In this document: one piece after another, positions 1,772 through 19,382 of the stretch
How the letters are laid out: each line of letters opens with the position of its first letter
Numbering within the stretch: position 1 is the stretch's first letter
Assembly (NCBI GenBank): GCA_048938005.1
Contig: JBHLMQ010000029.1
Coordinates: 1 to 39,743, forward strand
Length of the DNA stretch: 39,743 nt
Reading direction: 5' to 3'
Origin: Promethearchaeota archaeon
GTDB lineage: Archaea > Asgardarchaeota > Lokiarchaeia > Sigyniarchaeales > SOKP01
Position numbers and translations under genes: made by a program
The notes under the pieces: generated by a model
The model's input: only the letters and a program-made list of their open reading frames with translations
Told to the model about the DNA's origin: nothing
Database searches by the model: none

Positions 1772-3838
1772 TTGGTAATAACAGGTCGAATCAAATTGAA
1801 CCTTTTAGATAATACCTTCGGTGAGACCAGAGAAATTCACGGTTTTACAAAAAATGAGATTTTAGAAATTAAAAATTCTCTCACGAAATTTAAATCAGAA
1901 AATACTGAAGAATCTGAAATATATAGTTATTTAAAATCAAAATTATACATTTCTCCTGAAGTATTTGATTTATATTCAAATTATTTAAAAGATCTGAAAG
2001 TTTTAGCAGAAATTCATTTATTACCTTTTAAAGATTCACATTATTTCTATTTAAGAAACGAGATTTTAGATGAATTAAATCTCATTTCAAATAATTTAAA
2101 GAATCTTGGTTCAAATACCAGGAACATTAAAAGATTAACAAAAAATAAAACAAAATTAAACGAGTTTTTGTTAATAATAGATAGTCTTCTTGAGGATTGT
2201 AATAATCTAACTTCTGAAATAAAGCGCTCTTTAAAAGAAATTGAAAACATTTATGATAATAATATATACCTTTGGATTGAAATAAATAGAATAAAGAATT
2301 TAAATTTTAAATTAAATGAAATTCCAAGTACTTTAGAAAATTGGGATGAAATAAAGGATCTCTTTATATTTATTAAAAGTTTAAATGAAGTTTTTTCAAG
2401 AAAACGAAAAAGAGAAAAAGATAAGTATTTAACATTTCATTTTGATGAAATCTATCAATATTTTTTATCTAAGGATGAGGGAAAAATTAAATACTATTTG
2501 GATTTGGTCCATCTTTTATATAATAATAAAATTTTTGAAGTGTATACAGGAGAAGAATTTATAAACATACTCGAAAGGAAAGAAGTTATACAAAATTTAA
2601 AAAATTTCATACGTCCATTACTTAAACAGTTAATTGAAGATAAATTACATGATATCTTAATTGAAATCGAGGATTTTAACTTAAAGGAAAATGATTTAAG
2701 TATTAATATAAAAACTCTAAAAGATCAAAAACTTAGTTTATATCTACCAAAGATAGTTGACTATTATATTATTGACTTGGAAAAGAGATTCCAAGAAAAG
2801 ATTCATGATGTTATTGAAGCAGATAAATTTGAAGAAATTGCAAATTTTTATTACCAAAAAATTGATGTTTTCTGGTCAAAAATTAATGAAATTGAAGATT
2901 GGGTATTAAATATAGAGAATTTCCTGAGTCCCTATGAAAGTATTACAATAGCTCTGAGAAAAATATTTTCAAATGTGTCTTCTGAAATCTATCGCAGAAA
3001 AAATGAGTATCTAGCATTTATCAAAACAGTTAAAGATGAAGAATATAGAGTTGAAATAAGAAAGTTTGTATCTGATAAAATCTCAGAAGTAAATGATCTA
3101 ATTAGAGTCTACGAGGATGAGGCATCATTAATAATTAAAGAAGAATTTCCACAACTGAAAAAGATTAAAGAAATTTTAAATGATTATAATAACAAAATTC
3201 AGAGTATTAAAGATGCTGTTTTTAAAAAATTAGACTCTGTGAAATCAAATGACGTAGATATTTATCAGGTAATAAAATTTTGGGAAGATAGCTTAAATCG
3301 TAAAAAGCAGCAATTAACTTTTCTCATATCCCTTCTACTAAATAAATTGTTTAAGACCTTTAAAGATTTAATTGATAAGGAAGGAATTTTATTCGCTACT
3401 ATTACTGAAATCACCGAACAAACAGAAAACTTTGAGGGACTGCCTCTCAATTTTGCGTTATCGTCATTTTTAGCAGAGAAATTAACAGAAGATGAATTAA
3501 AAGAAAGGATTTCAGAGATAAAGTCGAAAATTAACCAATTAAATAATTCATTAGGGCTTTATCAAGTAGAGGTATCAAAACTTGAGAAAATTTTAGCAAA
3601 TCGAGTAAAATTAAGAAAAGGAATTTCTGATTCAGAAGTCCAATGTACCGTCTGTCATAATTATATCAATTTTGCTAAAGATAAAGTAATTACTTGTCCT
3701 TTCTGTGCAAGTACTTACCATTATTTATGCGTTGCATTTTGGCTTTCAAAATATAATTCATGTCCAATGTGTCAAAACCATTTTCTTGAACCTCATTCAG
3801 AAATGTTTGAGAGTGAAGAAGATCAAGAATTAAGATGA
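1772..3838 (+). CDS. long helical/coiled-coil protein with C-terminal RING-type (C4HC3) zinc finger
   Basis: CTVC-x13-CPFC-x4-HYLC-x3-W-x6-CPMC at 3644-3772; remainder helical and E/K/I/L-rich; start uncertain. Confidence 0.8.
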   Translation: MVITGRIKLNLLDNTFGETREIHGFTKNEILEIKNSLTKFKSENTEESEIYSYLKSKLYISPEVFDLYSNYLKDLKVLAEIHLLPFKDSHYFYLRNEILDELNLISNNLKNLGSNTRNIKRLTKNKTKLNEFLLIIDSLLEDCNNLTSEIKRSLKEIENIYDNNIYLWIEINRIKNLNFKLNEIPSTLENWDEIKDLFIFIKSLNEVFSRKRKREKDKYLTFHFDEIYQYFLSKDEGKIKYYLDLVHLLYNNKIFEVYTGEEFINILERKEVIQNLKNFIRPLLKQLIEDKLHDILIEIEDFNLKENDLSINIKTLKDQKLSLYLPKIVDYYIIDLEKRFQEKIHDVIEADKFEEIANFYYQKIDVFWSKINEIEDWVLNIENFLSPYESITIALRKIFSNVSSEIYRRKNEYLAFIKTVKDEEYRVEIRKFVSDKISEVNDLIRVYEDEASLIIKEEFPQLKKIKEILNDYNNKIQSIKDAVFKKLDSVKSNDVDIYQVIKFWEDSLNRKKQQLTFLISLLLNKLFKTFKDLIDKEGILFATITEITEQTENFEGLPLNFALSSFLAEKLTEDELKERISEIKSKINQLNNSLGLYQVEVSKLEKILANRVKLRKGISDSEVQCTVCHNYINFAKDKVITCPFCASTYHYLCVAFWLSKYNSCPMCQNHFLEPHSEMFESEEDQELR

Positions 3839-6953: not shown

Positions 6954-7961
6954 ATGAAACTTTTTCTAATTGAACAAGGAAATTTAAATGAAATCAATAA
7001 ACTCATCTTTTCTAGTGGAGACGTTTATCTCGTGGATGATGAGAAAACTATCTATGTTTGGATTGGTAATAAATGCTCTGTTGATGAGAAGACTGCTGGT
7101 GCCGCTCAAGCAAGAACACTCGACCAACAACGAGGTGGTGCTGCAAAAATCATTACAGTAGATCAAGGACAAGAGCCAAAAGAATTTATGAAAGCAATTA
7201 ATCCAATGGGAGCAATGAAAATTGTAGAAAAAAATTACGCTAAAACATTGCTTAAAGATGTAACTACAGGTGATTGGGCCGGGTTTACAGAGTGGAAGAA
7301 TGTATTATACCGTGTTTCCTCGGAAGAATTCGAGGACATCAATGCTATGAAAATGATTCAAGTTCCGTTTAAAAAAGAATCATTAGATTCGGAAGATTGT
7401 TTCGTTGCTGATTTAGGCAATAAAGTATACATATGGCAAGGAAATGCTAGTACTGTGAAAGAGCGTGTCAAAGCGGGTCAATGGGCTCGTGCTATAGATG
7501 CTGATAGGGCGGGATTACAACAAGAAACAATCTTTGAAGAAGGGGATGATATGGAATTTATGGCAGCTTTAGAGAGAGGTGAAGATTATAAAGAGTCTGA
7601 CGCCGTCCAATTAAAAGCTGAATCTGTGTTAGAAGGCGAAGATGCAGATGATAGAATAGCGAAAGCAATCCAACCTGAATTTAAATCTGAAGTTAAAGAG
7701 GTGTCTCCAGAAGAAGTAAAAGCTGATATTTCTGAAGTTAAAGCTTCAGGAGCGGCTCCTGGAATACCGGGTAAAACTGATGCCTCCATTCTAACTATTG
7801 AAAAAATAGAAGGTCGAAGAAAATGTCCAGAGTGTGGAACTGATGACCCTCATATGATTCATGAGAGTGTGGATAAGTCTAATATAATTTTAGACTATCC
7901 AAGAGTATATGGCAAAAAATACCTCTGTGGGTCGTGTGGGTGTAATTGGCGTGAAAAATAA
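6954..7961 (+). CDS. two-domain gelsolin/villin-family actin regulator with acidic linker and C-terminal Zn ribbon
   Basis: two gelsolin repeats (SGDVYLVD..IYVWIG..S.DEK..QGQEPKEF and LDSEDCFVAD..VYIWQG..S..ER..EGDD.EF); CPECG...CGSCG tail. Confidence 0.9.
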   Translation: MKLFLIEQGNLNEINKLIFSSGDVYLVDDEKTIYVWIGNKCSVDEKTAGAAQARTLDQQRGGAAKIITVDQGQEPKEFMKAINPMGAMKIVEKNYAKTLLKDVTTGDWAGFTEWKNVLYRVSSEEFEDINAMKMIQVPFKKESLDSEDCFVADLGNKVYIWQGNASTVKERVKAGQWARAIDADRAGLQQETIFEEGDDMEFMAALERGEDYKESDAVQLKAESVLEGEDADDRIAKAIQPEFKSEVKEVSPEEVKADISEVKASGAAPGIPGKTDASILTIEKIEGRRKCPECGTDDPHMIHESVDKSNIILDYPRVYGKKYLCGSCGCNWREK

Positions 7962-10034: not shown

Positions 10035-10652
10035 TCATTCTTCTATGCGGTCTTTCCAAGAATCTTTTCTTGGTTCAGCTGTATCATCACGATATTTAGT
10101 CGATTGATATTCTGTGCTGGAAGAAATCTGAAAAGGAGATCCAGTACTTTGTTGAGGAGGTGAGACTATCTCCATAATTTCTTTTAATTCACTTTGCGTC
10201 TTTGTTTCTTTCCCTGTAATTCTTTTATAAATCTTTTTTATCCCGTATATTAATAAAGAAAAACCTATTGAAAAAATAAGGTAAATAGCAACCCAACCAC
10301 TGCCAAAAATTAAAAGTGGAAAAGGTAACAACCCACTGCTATAATCTGCATAAATAAATCCGAGAACTATAAAAATACCAATGAAAATCAGACATCTTAC
10401 ACATAGAGGCACCATTTGCTTCTTCATTATCTGTTTCATGAACCGGACTGATTCTTGTTGTAGCTCTGCCATTAACTGAAAATCACCTAAAAGTTGAGCA
10501 TTTTTCATACGTTCTCGAAGATTAGATGCCTTTTTCCTCATATCTCTTAAATTTCCTTCTCTTAATCCTAAAAAATAATTAAGAGATATCCCTAGCATTA
10601 TCATACCAATGGTTATGATCATAATTAGAATAATTATAACTATGTTTGACAT
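10035..10652 (-). CDS. EMC3/TMCO1 (DUF106, Oxa1 superfamily) membrane protein
   Basis: TM1, M/Q/K-rich coiled coil, TM2, LPFP loop, then GW..Y TM3. Confidence 0.8.
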   Translation of the reverse strand: MSNIVIIILIMIITIGMIMLGISLNYFLGLREGNLRDMRKKASNLRERMKNAQLLGDFQLMAELQQESVRFMKQIMKKQMVPLCVRCLIFIGIFIVLGFIYADYSSGLLPFPLLIFGSGWVAIYLIFSIGFSLLIYGIKKIYKRITGKETKTQSELKEIMEIVSPPQQSTGSPFQISSSTEYQSTKYRDDTAEPRKDSWKDRIEE

Positions 10653-10769: not shown

Positions 10770-11855
10770 TTATCTCAAATTCCCTTCTATAAATCCTTTA
10801 ATATATTTAGCATAAACCGTTTTCCAACGAGTTGGGATTGATGATGCTATAGCGCAGCCTAAACGGCAATTTTGGCAGAAATTATAATTATCATGCATTT
10901 TCTTTATTTCTTTTACTTTATGAGAATTATAAATTGCCGATATGGGGAATTTTAGAGCATTATAACTTACTATTGGATGAATTTTACAAGGATAATTAAT
11001 AAATCCGTCATGACTGATGAATAAATAAGCTTCAGCAACATGGCAGCGTAAAATTTTTTGGTTGTATTGTGGATATCCACCAAAACCTCCTTTCTCAACA
11101 ACCTCGACACTGATGGGATCAGTTAAAATATTGCTATATTTTTTTCTTAATACTCGAATTAGATTTGCCCAAGCAGAGATGTCTGGTATTATTTCATTAA
11201 TATTTTGAATTTGAAAACTTCTATTCGGGAAATCTCTTATAATATCTTCACATGGATATAATTCAATAGAACAGCTAAGTTTTTCAGCTAATTGGCAAAT
11301 ATCATCCAAAAGGAGGAGATTATCTCTCATAACTACTGTACTGATAATTACTTTAATATCATGCTTATTAGCTAACTTAATAGATTCGATAACTTTATCA
11401 AATACTTTAATTCCTCGCATTTTATTATGTAATTTTGCTGTAGGATAATCAAGTGAGAGTAAAATATAATCCAAACCTTCAATTTTATACTCTTTAAATA
11501 ATTTAGGTAATAAATATCCATTAGTAGCAATACCATTCATAAAATCATGTATTATTCCGGTGTGATAAATTAATTCTGGTAAATCTTTTCTTAATGTAGG
11601 TTCGCCCCCCGTAAAAGAAAGAGCTAGTACACCTAAATCAGCTATTTGATCTATTAAATATTTTATTTGTTCTGTAGTCATATCGGTACCTAAAATGGAT
11701 TCAGGTAAAGAATGAATTGAACAGAATGGACATTTCCCGTTACAACGCAAAGTTAATTCTATCTGTGCGGAATATGGAATTTTCAGATTAGTAAAATTAT
11801 TTAATATAAAGTTTCTAATGTATTGAATCCATTTGTTTATTCTCTTTCGAGGAAT
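10770..11855 (-). CDS. radical SAM protein with SPASM/twitch-type C-terminus (5' end extended beyond the ORF track)
   Basis: CNGKCPFC, FTGGEP, TNG; C-terminal C..PC and CQNC..C; the frame is open up to 11855. Confidence 0.88.
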   Translation of the reverse strand: MPRKRINKWIQYIRNFILNNFTNLKIPYSAQIELTLRCNGKCPFCSIHSLPESILGTDMTTEQIKYLIDQIADLGVLALSFTGGEPTLRKDLPELIYHTGIIHDFMNGIATNGYLLPKLFKEYKIEGLDYILLSLDYPTAKLHNKMRGIKVFDKVIESIKLANKHDIKVIISTVVMRDNLLLLDDICQLAEKLSCSIELYPCEDIIRDFPNRSFQIQNINEIIPDISAWANLIRVLRKKYSNILTDPISVEVVEKGGFGGYPQYNQKILRCHVAEAYLFISHDGFINYPCKIHPIVSYNALKFPISAIYNSHKVKEIKKMHDNYNFCQNCRLGCAIASSIPTRWKTVYAKYIKGFIEGNLR

Positions 11856-12129
11856 TTATATCTACACCGCATTTGACTTAGTAAATTTCTAATTAAGAAT
11901 TTAAAGTATGTAGAAATTAAAAATATAACTTAAAGATTTAATAATTGGTTTTTTTTTATAAATATCATTAATTAAGGGATTAATGAATTATTACATAGCA
12001 AATGAAGCTTATAATAAAACAAACGTGCGTTTAAGATCTCTCAATTCTGCTAAGGAAATCGTTTATGATATATAAAGAATAAAAAAGGTTAATAAAATTA
12101 GTTTTTAATTTTCAATACCGCAGAAAAGA

Positions 12130-12513
12130 TCAATACTCATATCCACACTGTTTACAGATATATTTTTTTCTGCATGTAATATGTTAGATATTACATTTTG
12201 CATATATCTTTACACCGCCCATTTGATGCAAAACTTGGCTTTTATCTTCGTGCGTTGTAAATGCAGTACTCCCACATTCAGGGCAAATCCGACGACCTTC
12301 AACTACAGGTTTCTCCTTTAATCGTGCTTCTTCTTCTTGTTTTTCGACGATTGCCGAAGGTTTAATTGTTATTGCTTCGGGAGAAGGAGCAGCGGAAGGT
12401 GTTGGTGTAGATGGTACAGAAGCGGCTGTTGTTGGTTCAAGTTTTAACAATTTGTCAAGTTTATCATTAATAGTTTCAAGCAAATTCAATACTTTTTGTT
12501 CAAATTCTGACAA
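12130..12513 (-). CDS. coiled coil-linker-Zn ribbon protein interrupted by a 30-nt stop-containing insertion (intron-containing gene or pseudogene)
   Basis: GAGGAG RBS before TTG at 12513; EGRRICPECG..DKS..IYAK, TAA at 12186-12184, then in-frame KKYICKQCGYEY ending in TGA at 12132-12130. Confidence 0.75.
12168..12197 (-). other. candidate BHB/BHL-type intron (30-nt hairpin)
   Basis: ATGTAATAT-ctaac-ATATTACAT stem, 3-nt AAA bulge, TGC/GCA central helix, exon-exon helix AGATATA/TATATCT; removal gives YAKKYICKQCG. Confidence 0.5.
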
Positions 12514-12680
12514 AAAAATTCTCCTCAAAATTATTTTTTAATAAATTCAATCTTTTTTACAAATTTAATCTAAGTTCGATTTTAAATATTTTAGTAAAAT
12601 GAAAGTAGGCAAAAAATCAATTCATAATAAATTTACAAAATATTGCATCTTTAAAAAATAGAAAATTAACTTTTAACTGT

Positions 12681-13130
12681 TCAAAAAGCTCTTCTACGTT
12701 TTTCACACTTTTCAAGAAAATCTAGCACAGATTCCCTAATTTCAACTGCTGGAGATATAAATTTAGTTTTACTTATATAAGAAATAGCATCTTGCCAGCT
12801 CCAAGTGGGATTTTTCTTCAGCAACCATGCAACAATTATACCCCCCGATCTCGAGATCCCCATTGAGCAATGAACCAAGACTTTTCCGTTATTTTTTAAA
12901 TGTTTATCCAGAAATTTTAAGATTTCTTCTAGATAATCATGTGGGACGTAAAAATCATCTGGAAATCCTTTATGTAAATAAGCAAAACCTAAGTGTGTAG
13001 GGTTATAAAGATTATCTTCCATTAAATTTACGATTGCAGTAATTCCTATTTTCTTTAATTTTTCAAAATTTAGTCTTGGCCAATATGCTCCAATATATAA
13101 GTTTTTATGAACCTTGTATATTTGATCCAA
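12681..13130 (-). CDS. dual-specificity protein phosphatase
   Basis: VLVHCSMGISRS (CX5R), LYIG and GITAIVNL motifs. Confidence 0.93.
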   Translation of the reverse strand: MDQIYKVHKNLYIGAYWPRLNFEKLKKIGITAIVNLMEDNLYNPTHLGFAYLHKGFPDDFYVPHDYLEEILKFLDKHLKNNGKVLVHCSMGISRSGGIIVAWLLKKNPTWSWQDAISYISKTKFISPAVEIRESVLDFLEKCEKRRRAF

Positions 13131-17476: not shown

Positions 17477-17636
17477 GGATTTCCACAGTATAATATTTTT
17501 TCATTATTAACAACATAAGATTTTATGTTTATTAAAATTACGATGTTATTGAAATAATATTAATTTCCGAAAGCATAAAATATAACTAAAGTTATTGTTC
17601 AAAATATTATTAAGCTTTAATGGTAAAATTTTAAAT

Positions 17637-19382
17637 ATGGAGCCTTATTATAATAAAATCTCTGAAGTATTATTAAAAAAGTTTAAAATAATTGTCGGAA
17701 AAGATTATTTTTTTGATGATTATGAAATAAGATGGACCTACGCTTTTGGAGGAGGAATATTTAACAAAGAGTGGGTTCCAGATTTAATTTTGATTACTCA
17801 AAATGCTAAACAAATTTCTGAAGTTTTAAAATTAGCAAATAAGAATAGAATTCCAGTAACTCCTCGGGGGAGCGGAACAAGTTTATCTTCCGGTTCATTA
17901 ACCCCTTATGGGGGAATAATTTTAGATTTAAGCCAAATGAAGGATATTCTTACAATAGATATTGATAATAATTTTGTAGAAGTTGAGCCTGGAGTAATTT
18001 GTGATGAATTAAATGAAATATTAAAACCATATGGTTATTTTTTTCCTCCAGATCCAGGTTCAAGTTCTGTAGCTACAATAGGGGGAATGGTTGCTAGTAA
18101 TGCTGGTGGCATCCAAGCATTCAAATATGGGGTTACAAAAAATTATGTCATATATTTAGAAGTTGTATTACCAGATGGAAAAATTTTGAATCTTGGTTCT
18201 AAAGTTTTAAAATCAGTATCATCTTATAATATCAAGGATCTATTTATCGGTTCTGAAGGCACATTAGGAGTAATTACAAAAATTGGTTTACGAATTAGAC
18301 CTTTGCCAAAAACTAGAAAATTAGGTATATTTATTTTTGAAAATGTTGATGATTTACAAGATGCTGTGTTAGAGTTAAGACGAAGTGGGATTGTCCCAAA
18401 TTTATTAGAATTTATGGATAAGCTTATTTTGAAAGCCGTTACTGAATATCTAGGTGGTGAGTTCTTCGATTTTCCAAATGGTTATGTACTATTAGCTGAA
18501 GTGGATGGAAACTCTATAAGAGAGGTTGATGAATCATTTACTATAATGTTTGATATAATAATCCAGAAAAATCCAATATTTCATAAGGTAGCGATGAGTG
18601 AAGAGGAACGAGAAAGATTAATCCTTGCAAGGAAAGCTAATCTTCCCGCTCTTTCGAGAATTAGACCAAATACTTGTGTTGAGGATTGTACGATCCAGAT
18701 TTCAAAATTCGCTGATATTATTAAAAAAATTGAGGAAATTCCTGAAAAAGTTAATGCCAAAAACTTATTAGTAGCAATTATTTGTCATATGGAGGGAAAT
18801 TTGCATCCTACATTCTTATTTAATGAAAATGATGAACAAGATGTTAAAGATTTCGAAAAGGCAATAGATTATTTATATAGACAAATAATAATACCCGCAG
18901 GGGGAACGTTAACTGGTGAACATGGAATTGGAAAAATAAAGACACCATTTCTTGAATTAGAACATGATTCTGAGGTAGTTGATCTGATGGTAAAAATTAA
19001 GAAGTTCTTTGATCCGAACATGATCTTGAATCCTGGAATTGGGAAAGGTGATCCTCGATCTTTAAATACCAAAAATCATAGCCGTACCTTAATAAAACAA
19101 TCTGATAAGATTTTAGAATTAAAGTGTATGAGATGTGGATTTTGTATCTCATGTCCATCAAGAATTAATTATATTTTAGAGGCATATAGTCCCAGAGGAC
19201 GTTTAAGTCTCTTAAATGGCTTAGTACATGGTGAATTAGAATTAAATGATTTAATAATTGAAGTATTGCAGACTTGTACTTTATGTGGACTCTGTCAAAC
19301 AATGTGTCCTGCGGGTGTTAATACAACTGAAATTTTTGAAAAAGCTAGAGAGATAATTCATAGAAAACCTAAAAAACAATGA
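17637..19382 (+). CDS. FAD-linked oxidase (GlcD/D-lactate dehydrogenase family) fused to a 4Fe-4S dicluster
   Basis: PRGSGTSL, FPPDPGS, GSEGTLG, GNLH, GEHGIG; CMRCGFCISCP and CTLCGLCQTMCP; ATG 17637 preferred over TTG 17595. Confidence 0.9.
   Translation: MEPYYNKISEVLLKKFKIIVGKDYFFDDYEIRWTYAFGGGIFNKEWVPDLILITQNAKQISEVLKLANKNRIPVTPRGSGTSLSSGSLTPYGGIILDLSQMKDILTIDIDNNFVEVEPGVICDELNEILKPYGYFFPPDPGSSSVATIGGMVASNAGGIQAFKYGVTKNYVIYLEVVLPDGKILNLGSKVLKSVSSYNIKDLFIGSEGTLGVITKIGLRIRPLPKTRKLGIFIFENVDDLQDAVLELRRSGIVPNLLEFMDKLILKAVTEYLGGEFFDFPNGYVLLAEVDGNSIREVDESFTIMFDIIIQKNPIFHKVAMSEEERERLILARKANLPALSRIRPNTCVEDCTIQISKFADIIKKIEEIPEKVNAKNLLVAIICHMEGNLHPTFLFNENDEQDVKDFEKAIDYLYRQIIIPAGGTLTGEHGIGKIKTPFLELEHDSEVVDLMVKIKKFFDPNMILNPGIGKGDPRSLNTKNHSRTLIKQSDKILELKCMRCGFCISCPSRINYILEAYSPRGRLSLLNGLVHGELELNDLIIEVLQTCTLCGLCQTMCPAGVNTTEIFEKAREIIHRKPKKQ

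Follow-up and report, generated by a model that had tools for sequence, protein, structure and literature searches.

A small zinc-ribbon gene in the genome of a lokiarchaeial Promethearchaeota archaeon most probably contains a bulge-helix-bulge (BHB) mini-intron that is spliced by the endonuclease EndA and the ligase RtcB. The gene lies on the minus strand at positions 12130 to 12513 of contig JBHLMQ010000029.1 (assembly GCA_048938005.1; Sigyniarchaeales), whose 39,743 nucleotides (nt) are the stretch analyzed here and are called the window below; the proposed intron occupies 12197-12168. In pre-tRNAs, EndA cuts introns after the second base of each bulge. With the insert, the gene measures 384 nt, and once it is excised, 354 nt (117 codons and a stop). 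Read on the minus strand, the coding frame passes through ..IYAK CNI, meets a TAA at 12186-12184, and resumes behind it without a shift as HITCR followed by KKYICKQCGYEY and a TGA at 12132-12130. Exon 1 (12198-12513) runs up to ..GGVKIYA, includes the first CxxC (CPECG), and ends on the first base of a Lys codon, the two remaining bases of which open exon 2 (12130-12167), followed by KYICKQCGYEY, with the second CxxC, and the TGA. Excision of 12197-12168 yields AKKYIC and thereby restores the second CxxC, as the initial annotation of this region had predicted; the same cut rule has the same effect in the relatives described below.

The 30 nt are extra sequence when set beside the uninterrupted copies of the same domain. 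A tblastn search of the domain against its own genome (designated G000; 3.72 Mb, 101 contigs, 29.8% G+C, 95% complete) retrieved eight paralogous domains, in six of which the alignment skips 10 residues cleanly, exactly at CNI*HITCRK, namely, in the gelsolin copy (C48:7806-7940) and those on contigs C98, C97, C31, C35, and C6; the other two (C44 and C75) align differently. The initial annotation had based its count on the gelsolin copy alone, and the gap in six paralogues bears it out. In the window, this uninterrupted zinc ribbon forms the C terminus of the gelsolin (7794-7958, plus strand) and aligns across the insert site without a gap. Contigs assembled from three runs of three studies span the insert with zero differences and zero gaps (X1 record 1, 11800-12315; X2 record 12, 11895-12514; X7 record 17, 11800-12439), although the window itself may stem from one of these runs. 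An assembly artefact, the first concern to be checked, is thus excluded, since contigs of three studies carry the insert unchanged. The window sequence is present in 20 public sequencing runs from seven studies, none of which is RNA by its record, and contigs alone were used for the bridging. The same samples also contain insert-free contigs of related organisms, visible as loose ends at 12202/12203. A blastn-short search of the 3.72-Mb genome with the 86-nt region matched no other copy of the insert, the next match being 19 nt of exon sequence.

The RNA of this region is predicted to adopt a BHB-like fold extending over 12156-12209. Its outer exon-exon helix, AGATATA/TATATCT, pairs 12209-12203 with 12162-12156. 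In the register that keeps the reading frame, the central helix is formed by the exon strand ATGC (12200-12203) and the intron strand GCAG (12170-12173), in which the first pair (H1) is A.G and the other three (H2 to H4) are paired; in an alternative register, the exon strand is TGCA at 12202-12199. The 5' bulge is AAA (12197-12199), with the predicted cut between 12198 and 12197, and the inner hairpin (12174-12196) has a 9-bp stem (12196-12188 with 12182-12174) and a CTAAC loop (12187-12183) that holds the in-frame TAA. The relaxed 3' bulge corresponds to an A7 run (12163-12169), with the predicted cut between 12168 and 12167, a position that frame restoration and the orthologues would assign. 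The A run gives five equivalent insert starts, from 12199 to 12195, all with the same product. The minimum-energy structure computed with RNAfold for 12225-12140, comprising the outer 7-bp helix, TGCA/TGCA, the AAA bulge, an 8-bp inner stem, the CTAAC loop, and an 8-nt 3' bulge, matches the geometry that the initial annotation had described; with an energy of -17 kcal/mol (z = -2.41), it is equaled in stability by 4 of 200 shuffled sequences. The caveats attached to that description were also correct: an excision in the TGCA/TGCA register would take out 28 nt and shift the frame, and the in-frame register has the A-G mismatch and a relaxed second bulge.

An alignment of orthologues, the check that had been suggested for the element, revealed that it is not peculiar to the window. 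In a sample of 54 genomes of the genus, the gene is present in 48, at 49 places, and its C-terminal region could be read at all 49. Stop-containing inserts of 29 to 32 nt occur in 10 of these 49 orthologous loci, at two sites 15 nt apart, and the other 39 are precisely without an insert; the place of the window's proposed intron is thus uninterrupted in 39 orthologues as well as in the six paralogues of its own genome. Six inserts share the position of the one in the window (site A, following GCx AA): those of G000, G005, and G064 are 30 nt long, that of G022 is 32 nt long, and those of G007 and G072 are 29 nt long. The other four (G006, G015, G014, and G023), all 30 nt long, lie at site B, 15 nt downstream, after TGY AA, where TGY is the first Cys codon of the second CxxC. 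A third site (site C) is marked by a 30-nt insert in a coiled-coil paralogue of G014, four codons upstream of site A. All of the insertion sites fall inside the last 20 codons, with the three sites within approximately 30 nt of one domain. When the inserts are removed, all ten orthologues end in ..IYAKK/RY(I/V)Cxx CGxxx-stop, just as the uninterrupted genes do. The 29- and 32-nt inserts break the frame, and consequently, read-through, a variant code, or an inserted peptide cannot explain the conserved codons downstream. By descent, the 11 inserts can be sorted into about six groups, within each of which their homology is clear. At sites A and B, the inserts start alike (ATGTAAT.. and ATGTTAT..) and end with a similar GCA-containing strand; movement of inserts between the two sites is possible.

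The orthology of these loci is supported by the retention of their synteny with the gene for prolyl-tRNA synthetase (ProRS). In at least 12 genomes, one contig holds both genes at a distance of 11 to 19 kb, including G000, G005, G006, G009, G011, G014, G022, and G028. Beyond the genus sample, no insert was found in any of the 23 metagenome loci that include the C-terminal region, among the at least 24 loci in the matches listed, and no stops were found in the matches to the gene, all of them distant, in 24 genomes of the order and class outside the genus. In one environmental orthologue (L080), the second CxxC has TTT (Phe) where its first Cys codon would stand (..KKYVFKKCG..), which may reflect a decaying copy or a sequencing error.

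Anchored at their junctions, the 11 inserts share one geometry. Exon bases -6 to -3 pair with intron bases -6 to -3, and on both sides the cut follows the second base of the bulge; three bases on the 5' strand, AA^A or AA^T, are unpaired in 11 of 11, giving a 5' bulge of 3 nt throughout, and the 3' side has an A-rich stretch of 3 to 8 nt, a relaxed form compared with the strict hBHBh' motif and its 3-nt bulges. The inner stem begins at intron base 2 and abuts the central helix directly on the 3' strand, and the intron ends in AA or AG. With this single cut rule, all 10 orthologues and the paralogue regain the frame and the CxxCGxxx-stop ending, and the inserts of 29 and 32 nt are no exception. 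In G072, the first intron base is T; its unspliced frame reads YAN-stop (Asn-stop), and its spliced codon, AA+A, is the conserved Lys, which pins the 5' junction of this insert to the predicted bond. A fixed rule was also applied, requiring at least three of the four central pairs, formation of pairs I1 and I2 of the inner stem, and at least 6 of its first 7 pairs. Of the 11 inserts, 10 have a rule-positive junction among their 1 to 5 sequence-equivalent frame-restoring junctions (for the window insert, i = 31 and n = 30); as background, the rule holds at 0.25% of 400,000 positions drawn at random from the genome and at 0.44% of all those within the same sequences.

The pairing is maintained by different bases in different inserts. 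H1 is paired in 8 of 11, H2 to H4 in 11 of 11, I1 and I2 in 11 of 11, and I3 to I9 in 9 to 11 of 11, with two to six pair types per position. All four central-helix pairs form in 8 of the 11 inserts, and the bulges are oriented as in pre-tRNA introns. The two strands of the central helix covary between sites (TGCT/AGCA, TGCT/GGCA, TTGT/GCAA, TTGC/GTGA, and TTCC/GGAA), and the inner stem shows double compensatory changes, with I7 going from A-T to T-A (G000/G005), I8 from A-T to G-C, and I9 from G-C to A-T (both G006/G023); counts of such changes overstate independence, given the relatedness of the groups. A MAFFT alignment of the 11 elements (A2) split the 3' halves of the groups into different columns.

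The sequence downstream of the insert stops behaves as coding sequence. Synonymous and nonsynonymous codon changes in exon 2 number 6:0 between G000 and G064, 5:1 (the one being Ile/Val) between G000 and G005, 3:0 between G007 and G072, 3:0 between G006 and G015, and 7:1 between G000 and G007. The final stop codon varies among TGA, TAA, and TAG, and its position is constant in all of the intron-bearing lineages. These observations indicate that exon 2 is under purifying selection and that its codons are translated in frame despite the upstream stop or frameshift; in G000, G005, and G064, in particular, the almost exclusively synonymous evolution of exon 2 indicates that an in-frame product is made. 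In a maximum-likelihood tree of the 49 genes with the inserts removed, the intron-bearing rows are scattered: the B-site G006 is sister to the intronless G009 (100/99), the A-site G072 is sister to the intronless G011 (100/98), and the A-site G022, in a distant clade, is sister to the intronless G010 (98/80). Built from a short gene and with many of its forks open, the tree implies several precise gains or losses either way.

The genome has the machinery that such an intron would need. G000 encodes two proteins with the tRNA-intron endonuclease domain (PF01974; 104.7 and 73.8 bits) and RtcB (568 bits). The closest matches of the 198-amino-acid PF01974 protein are the chains 3p1z_B, 3ajv_B, and 2zyz_B, all labeled as tRNA-splicing endonuclease by the search, which we take to be catalytic subunits of crenarchaeal heterotetramers; its Tyr, His, and Lys are presumably at the positions of the catalytic triad of the Methanocaldococcus jannaschii enzyme. 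The 205-amino-acid protein has no His at the corresponding position. G000 thus appears to encode a catalytic and, probably, a noncatalytic EndA subunit. According to the available text of one study, Asgard archaea have an (alpha-beta)2 EndA with an L1 loop that confers broad specificity and acceptance of relaxed BHB motifs (PMC5829648). As for the tRNA genes of G000, the Rfam model finds 25, about 14 of which are 93 to 124 nt long, and ARAGORN finds 16, 12 of them with introns. A rough scan of the 14 long genes gave candidate inserts of 22 to 45 nt in 7, near positions 20, 37 to 39, 55, 59, and 63, both canonical and noncanonical. Since few tRNA genes were found in a genome that is 95% complete, many of them are probably too interrupted to be detected.

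From these findings, we propose the following mechanism. In the pre-mRNA, the four exon bases just 5' of the 5' splice site would form pairs with four intron bases close to the intron's 3' end, the 3-nt bulge AA^A would separate this central helix from the 9-bp intron hairpin on the 5' strand, and an A-rich bulge would follow the central helix on the 3' strand. The two-subunit EndA of the host would then cleave after the second base of each bulge, and RtcB would ligate the exons and probably circularize the intron. The spliced mRNA would encode a 117-amino-acid protein with a complete four-Cys zinc ribbon (..IYAKKYICKQCGYEY); translation of the unspliced mRNA would stop at the TAA of the loop, giving a product without the second CxxC.

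Further mRNA introns were sought in G000 in three ways. A strict BHB scan, which required a 4-bp helix and an inner stem of 5 bp or more, allowed up to two G.U pairs, and took n from 18 to 100, set no minimum loop length and returned 96,916 candidates, some of them impossible hairpins. An open reading frame (ORF)-rescue test, which demanded an open frame of at least 80 codons ahead and a stop in or just after the insert, left 7,059 candidates. In-frame continuation for at least 30 codons was seen in 808 of these, compared with 745 and 721 in frame-shifted controls; with n of at most 45 and an inner stem of at least 7, continuation for at least 60 codons was seen in 11, compared with 5 and 5 in the controls. 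The ORF-rescue excess is weak at best. A paralogue-supported junction test, which detects introns solely in genes with a paralogue in the same genome, examined 1,461 peptides from the strict set and 20,646 junction peptides derived from the 564,000 candidates of a relaxed scan, and it recovered the window intron with four paralogue matches. The other 42 loci of the relaxed test, judged by the top match of each, were Hdr-like gene clusters or chance extensions with four to seven identities, and none was accepted. Ten candidates of the strict set checked by hand were adjacent genes with their own start signals (e.g., C40:33734-33764) or natural C termini. Across ten genomes, the 100 zinc-ribbon profile matches listed contained inserts only in nine orthologues and one paralogue. 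The A and B sites share the form TGY-(W)-AA|A beside an A run, and such sites may simply be where a BHB can form.

Two of the rejected candidates have features of their own. An 18-nt "intron" at C65:94510-94527 (minus strand) is a scan artefact with a loop of 1 nt; at this place, an ABC-ATPase-like ORF and a membrane-protein ORF stand in the same frame, parted by a single TGA, and no in-frame ATG, GTG, or TTG was seen between them. At C55:24238-24263 (minus strand), a stop within a 26-nt BHB-like candidate parts a flavin adenine dinucleotide-oxidase-like ORF from an Fe-S (CxxCxxC) ORF. A paralogue of this pair in the window (17595-19382) has both domains fused. As GGGGTGA and then TTG codons are present, the C55 pair is more likely to be adjacent genes than an interrupted one; no paralogue-supported junction was obtained.

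Several points weigh against an EndA-spliced intron in the window gene. The splicing is proposed here from the comparison of DNA, and since the 11 inserts belong to about six related groups, they cannot count as 11 independent observations. Taken alone, the fold of the window element is only modestly beyond that of shuffled sequences. In G000, G005, and G064, the best-paired register is TGCA/TGCA (4 bp), which predicts the out-of-frame excision of 28 nt; the in-frame register has 3 bp and the A.G mismatch, and an excision of 30 nt needs this ATGC/GCAG register or, equivalently, a 3' cut placed four bases inside the 8-nt loop. Instead of 3 nt, the 3' bulge has an A-rich loop of 7 to 8 nt, and an excision of 33 nt, with its cut one base short of the outer helix, would likewise keep the frame, with the loss of one Lys; the orthologues favor 30 nt for the window, and the exact bond is inferred from them. 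Several relatives have a weak outer exon-exon helix or none, and the insert of the paralogue fails the fixed rule, solely through an internal loop in its inner stem, its central helix being perfect. Finally, the BHB scans, the ORF-rescue test, and the paralogue-junction test together, which include the genome-wide scan for other stop-containing BHB hairpins that had been suggested, yielded no second convincing mRNA intron in G000, and the control gene, ProRS (491 amino acids), is without an internal stop at 49 of 49 places in the genus. The inserts are concentrated in one gene, and the genus apparently has no general habit of mRNA introns.

The rival explanations have to account for the same inserts. 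If a hairpin had been inserted by mutation, for instance, by template switching, only the truncated protein would be made, and exon 2 would be decaying or only recently cut off. Such a pseudogene or tolerated truncation is consistent with the TAA that ends the unspliced frame, with the uniqueness of the insert in the genome by blastn, and with the imperfect in-frame BHB register of the window. It is difficult to reconcile with ten orthologues and one paralogue that have inserts at three sites, with their downstream codons intact and a stop at the orthologous place; with changes in exon 2 that are nearly all synonymous between intron-bearing lineages (6:0, 5:1, 3:0, and 3:0); with the precise absence of the insert from close relatives; and with a bulge and an exon-intron pairing, covarying between sites, that are not expected from a template switch. 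We regard it as very unlikely, and its one-off form, the scenario that the initial annotation had set against its own proposal, is excluded by the inserts of the relatives. A tiny DNA palindrome resembling a miniature inverted-repeat transposable element (MITE), or an RNA element removed by an enzyme other than EndA (another structure-specific RNase with a ligase), would agree with the patchy presence and absence among close species, the palindromic inserts, and the shared beginnings of the A- and B-site inserts, and the AA or AG that precedes both cut sites can be read as a 2-bp target duplication. However, there is no second copy in the 3.72-Mb genome where a MITE would have multiple copies, 28 to 30 bp is far under the usual sizes of MITEs, and a DNA element alone leaves the conserved exon 2 behind stops and frameshifts unexplained. 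Moreover, complementarity of the end of the element to the exon at three targets is what an EndA substrate needs and is not a feature of a transposon, so that we hold this explanation to be very unlikely.

Programmed translational bypassing, as in phage T4 gene 60 and the yeast mitochondrial "byps," would have the ribosome take off at the Lys codon and land on a matching Lys codon beyond the hairpin. At site A, the AAA before the insert does equal the AAA just before the resumption point, with a stop-bearing hairpin between them, and the gap of 29 to 32 nt is within the range known for such elements, with gene 60 as the comparison. The take-off and landing codons, however, mismatch at site B (TGY versus CAA or AAA) and at site C (CCA versus AAA), and the 4-bp exon-intron pairing and its covariation have no role in bypassing. 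To our knowledge, translational bypassing has not been described in archaea, and we consider it highly improbable here. We rejected stop codon readthrough and a variant genetic code, as all three stop codons (TAA, TAG, and TGA) are found among the inserts and two of the insert lengths break the frame; a group I or group II intron was rejected on size.

The interrupted gene encodes a protein with an N-terminal helix, a Pro/Thr/Ser-rich linker, and a C-terminal four-Cys zinc ribbon. Its translation most likely starts at the TTG at 12513-12511, given that two orthologues have a stop codon directly 5' of that TTG; the ORF listed from 12528 is therefore probably too long, and the true gene would start at 12513. 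A likely ribosome-binding site, GAGGAG, read from the sequence, lies at 12521-12526 on the minus strand, 7 nt 5' of the TTG, and the same order of GAGGAG, spacer, and TTG is found in L031 and L032. The stops inside the matches of G021 and G013 fall just 5' of the real start codon and are not inserts. The Pfam search with the protein gave zinc-ribbon matches, all of them below threshold. We defined the ribbon by two CxxC knuckles approximately 25 to 30 residues apart and by profile similarity to the C-terminal domain of the Lokiarchaeota two-domain gelsolin (2DGel). A profile of ten uninterrupted copies (A1), in the alignment of which the cysteines C10, C13, C45, and C48 are invariant, matches residues 284 to 333 of PDB 7whg_G, "Lokiarchaeota gelsolin (2DGel)," with an E value of 6.3e-18. 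The module is thus a zinc ribbon of the Loki 2DGel C-terminal type, the second Cys pair of which the window gene reaches only after excision.

The window also encodes a two-domain gelsolin of 335 amino acids (6954-7961, plus strand; Pfam Gelsolin, E = 6.6e-28), equal in length to the Lokiarchaeota 2DGel of solved structure (7whg_G). The zinc-ribbon module is present in 4 to 13 copies per genome in G000 and in all 54 genomes of the genus, where it is fused to coiled-coil proteins, Pro-rich proteins, or gelsolin or stands nearly alone (approximately 65 to 90 amino acids). It looks like a lineage-wide C-terminal adaptor domain. Other eukaryote-like neighbors in the window are a 688-amino-acid protein with a weak RING-finger match (1772-3838, plus strand), an EMC3/TMCO1-like membrane protein (10035-10652, minus strand), and a dual-specificity phosphatase (12681-13130, minus strand).

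As far as the accessible literature goes, a close precedent is the cbf5 pre-mRNA of Crenarchaeota (Desulfurococcales and Sulfolobales), which has a short relaxed-BHB intron of patchy occurrence among lineages in hosts with an (alpha-beta)2 EndA (PMC2738675, PMC10485636). Like cbf5, the present case would be a protein gene with a short relaxed-BHB intron in a host with a two-subunit EndA, and its patchy presence implies gain and loss. It differs in that the gene is a zinc-ribbon gene of an Asgard (Loki-type) phylum, in having three sites instead of one, and in affecting 10 of 49 loci within one genus; further, the splicing of cbf5 was shown experimentally, whereas that of the present case is proposed from DNA. 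A second precedent is the HVO_1309 mRNA of Haloferax volcanii, which, according to the available text of a 2023 review, is cut by EndA and has a spliced product in RNA sequencing (PMC10485636). It resembles our proposal in that an archaeal mRNA is the substrate of EndA, but the EndA of Haloferax volcanii is homodimeric, unlike the two-subunit enzyme here. The same text counts these two, cbf5 and HVO_1309, as the protein genes of archaea with such introns and expects more (PMC10485636). Introns are extremely rare in the protein genes of archaea, and for Asgard protein genes none was found to be reported in literature outside subscription journals.

Heavy intron loads in Asgard tRNA genes, gained repeatedly at BHB-competent sites in other Asgard families, are described in the accessible part of a recent preprint, which does not treat mRNAs and uses "protein-coding" for neighboring genes (10.64898/2026.10.13.758758). 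The inserts studied here share the motif, a similar size range, and, as proposed, the enzymes with the noncanonical tRNA introns of Asgard archaea and Thermoproteales; unlike in those introns, the host RNA is an mRNA, and the reading frame adds a constraint. In eukaryotes, the splicing of HAC1/XBP1 mRNA removes a very short hairpin-defined intron, is initiated by the nuclease IRE1, uses a tRNA ligase (RtcB in animals), alters the C terminus of the protein, and is regulated by stress. The present case, as proposed, has in common with it a very short intron, RNA hairpins in place of the spliceosome, joining by a tRNA ligase, and a changed C terminus, but with a tRNA endonuclease proposed in the place of IRE1. 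On this comparison, it would be a cbf5-like mRNA intron in a new phylum and a new gene, unusual in its three sites per domain and its presence and absence at the level of species.

These findings bear first on annotation, as gene callers would give a truncated product of 109 to 114 amino acids without half of its metal site or would call a pseudogene. They also provide unusually clean material, namely, a 354-nt gene with three sites, presence and absence between sister species, inserts of 29, 30, and 32 nt that open the predicted splice sites to checking at single-base level, and many tRNA genes of the host that are themselves interrupted. Since no closer relatives of eukaryotes are known than Asgard archaea, the dynamics of any introns in their protein genes bear on how interrupted genes could have arisen and been tolerated before spliceosomes. 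A more far-reaching possibility, which we put forward tentatively and regard as doubtful, is that an active family of BHB mini-introns is gained and lost in Asgard protein genes, by reverse splicing or by copying into mRNA or DNA sites of the TGY-(W)-AA|A form that can pair with the 3' end of the intron, and that the splicing of the last 12 or so codons is a posttranscriptional switch of the zinc ribbon, a counterpart of HAC1/XBP1. That splicing serves as a regulated on/off switch is speculation; if true, it would constitute an archaeal counterpart of the HAC1/XBP1 type in the closest prokaryotic relatives of eukaryotes.

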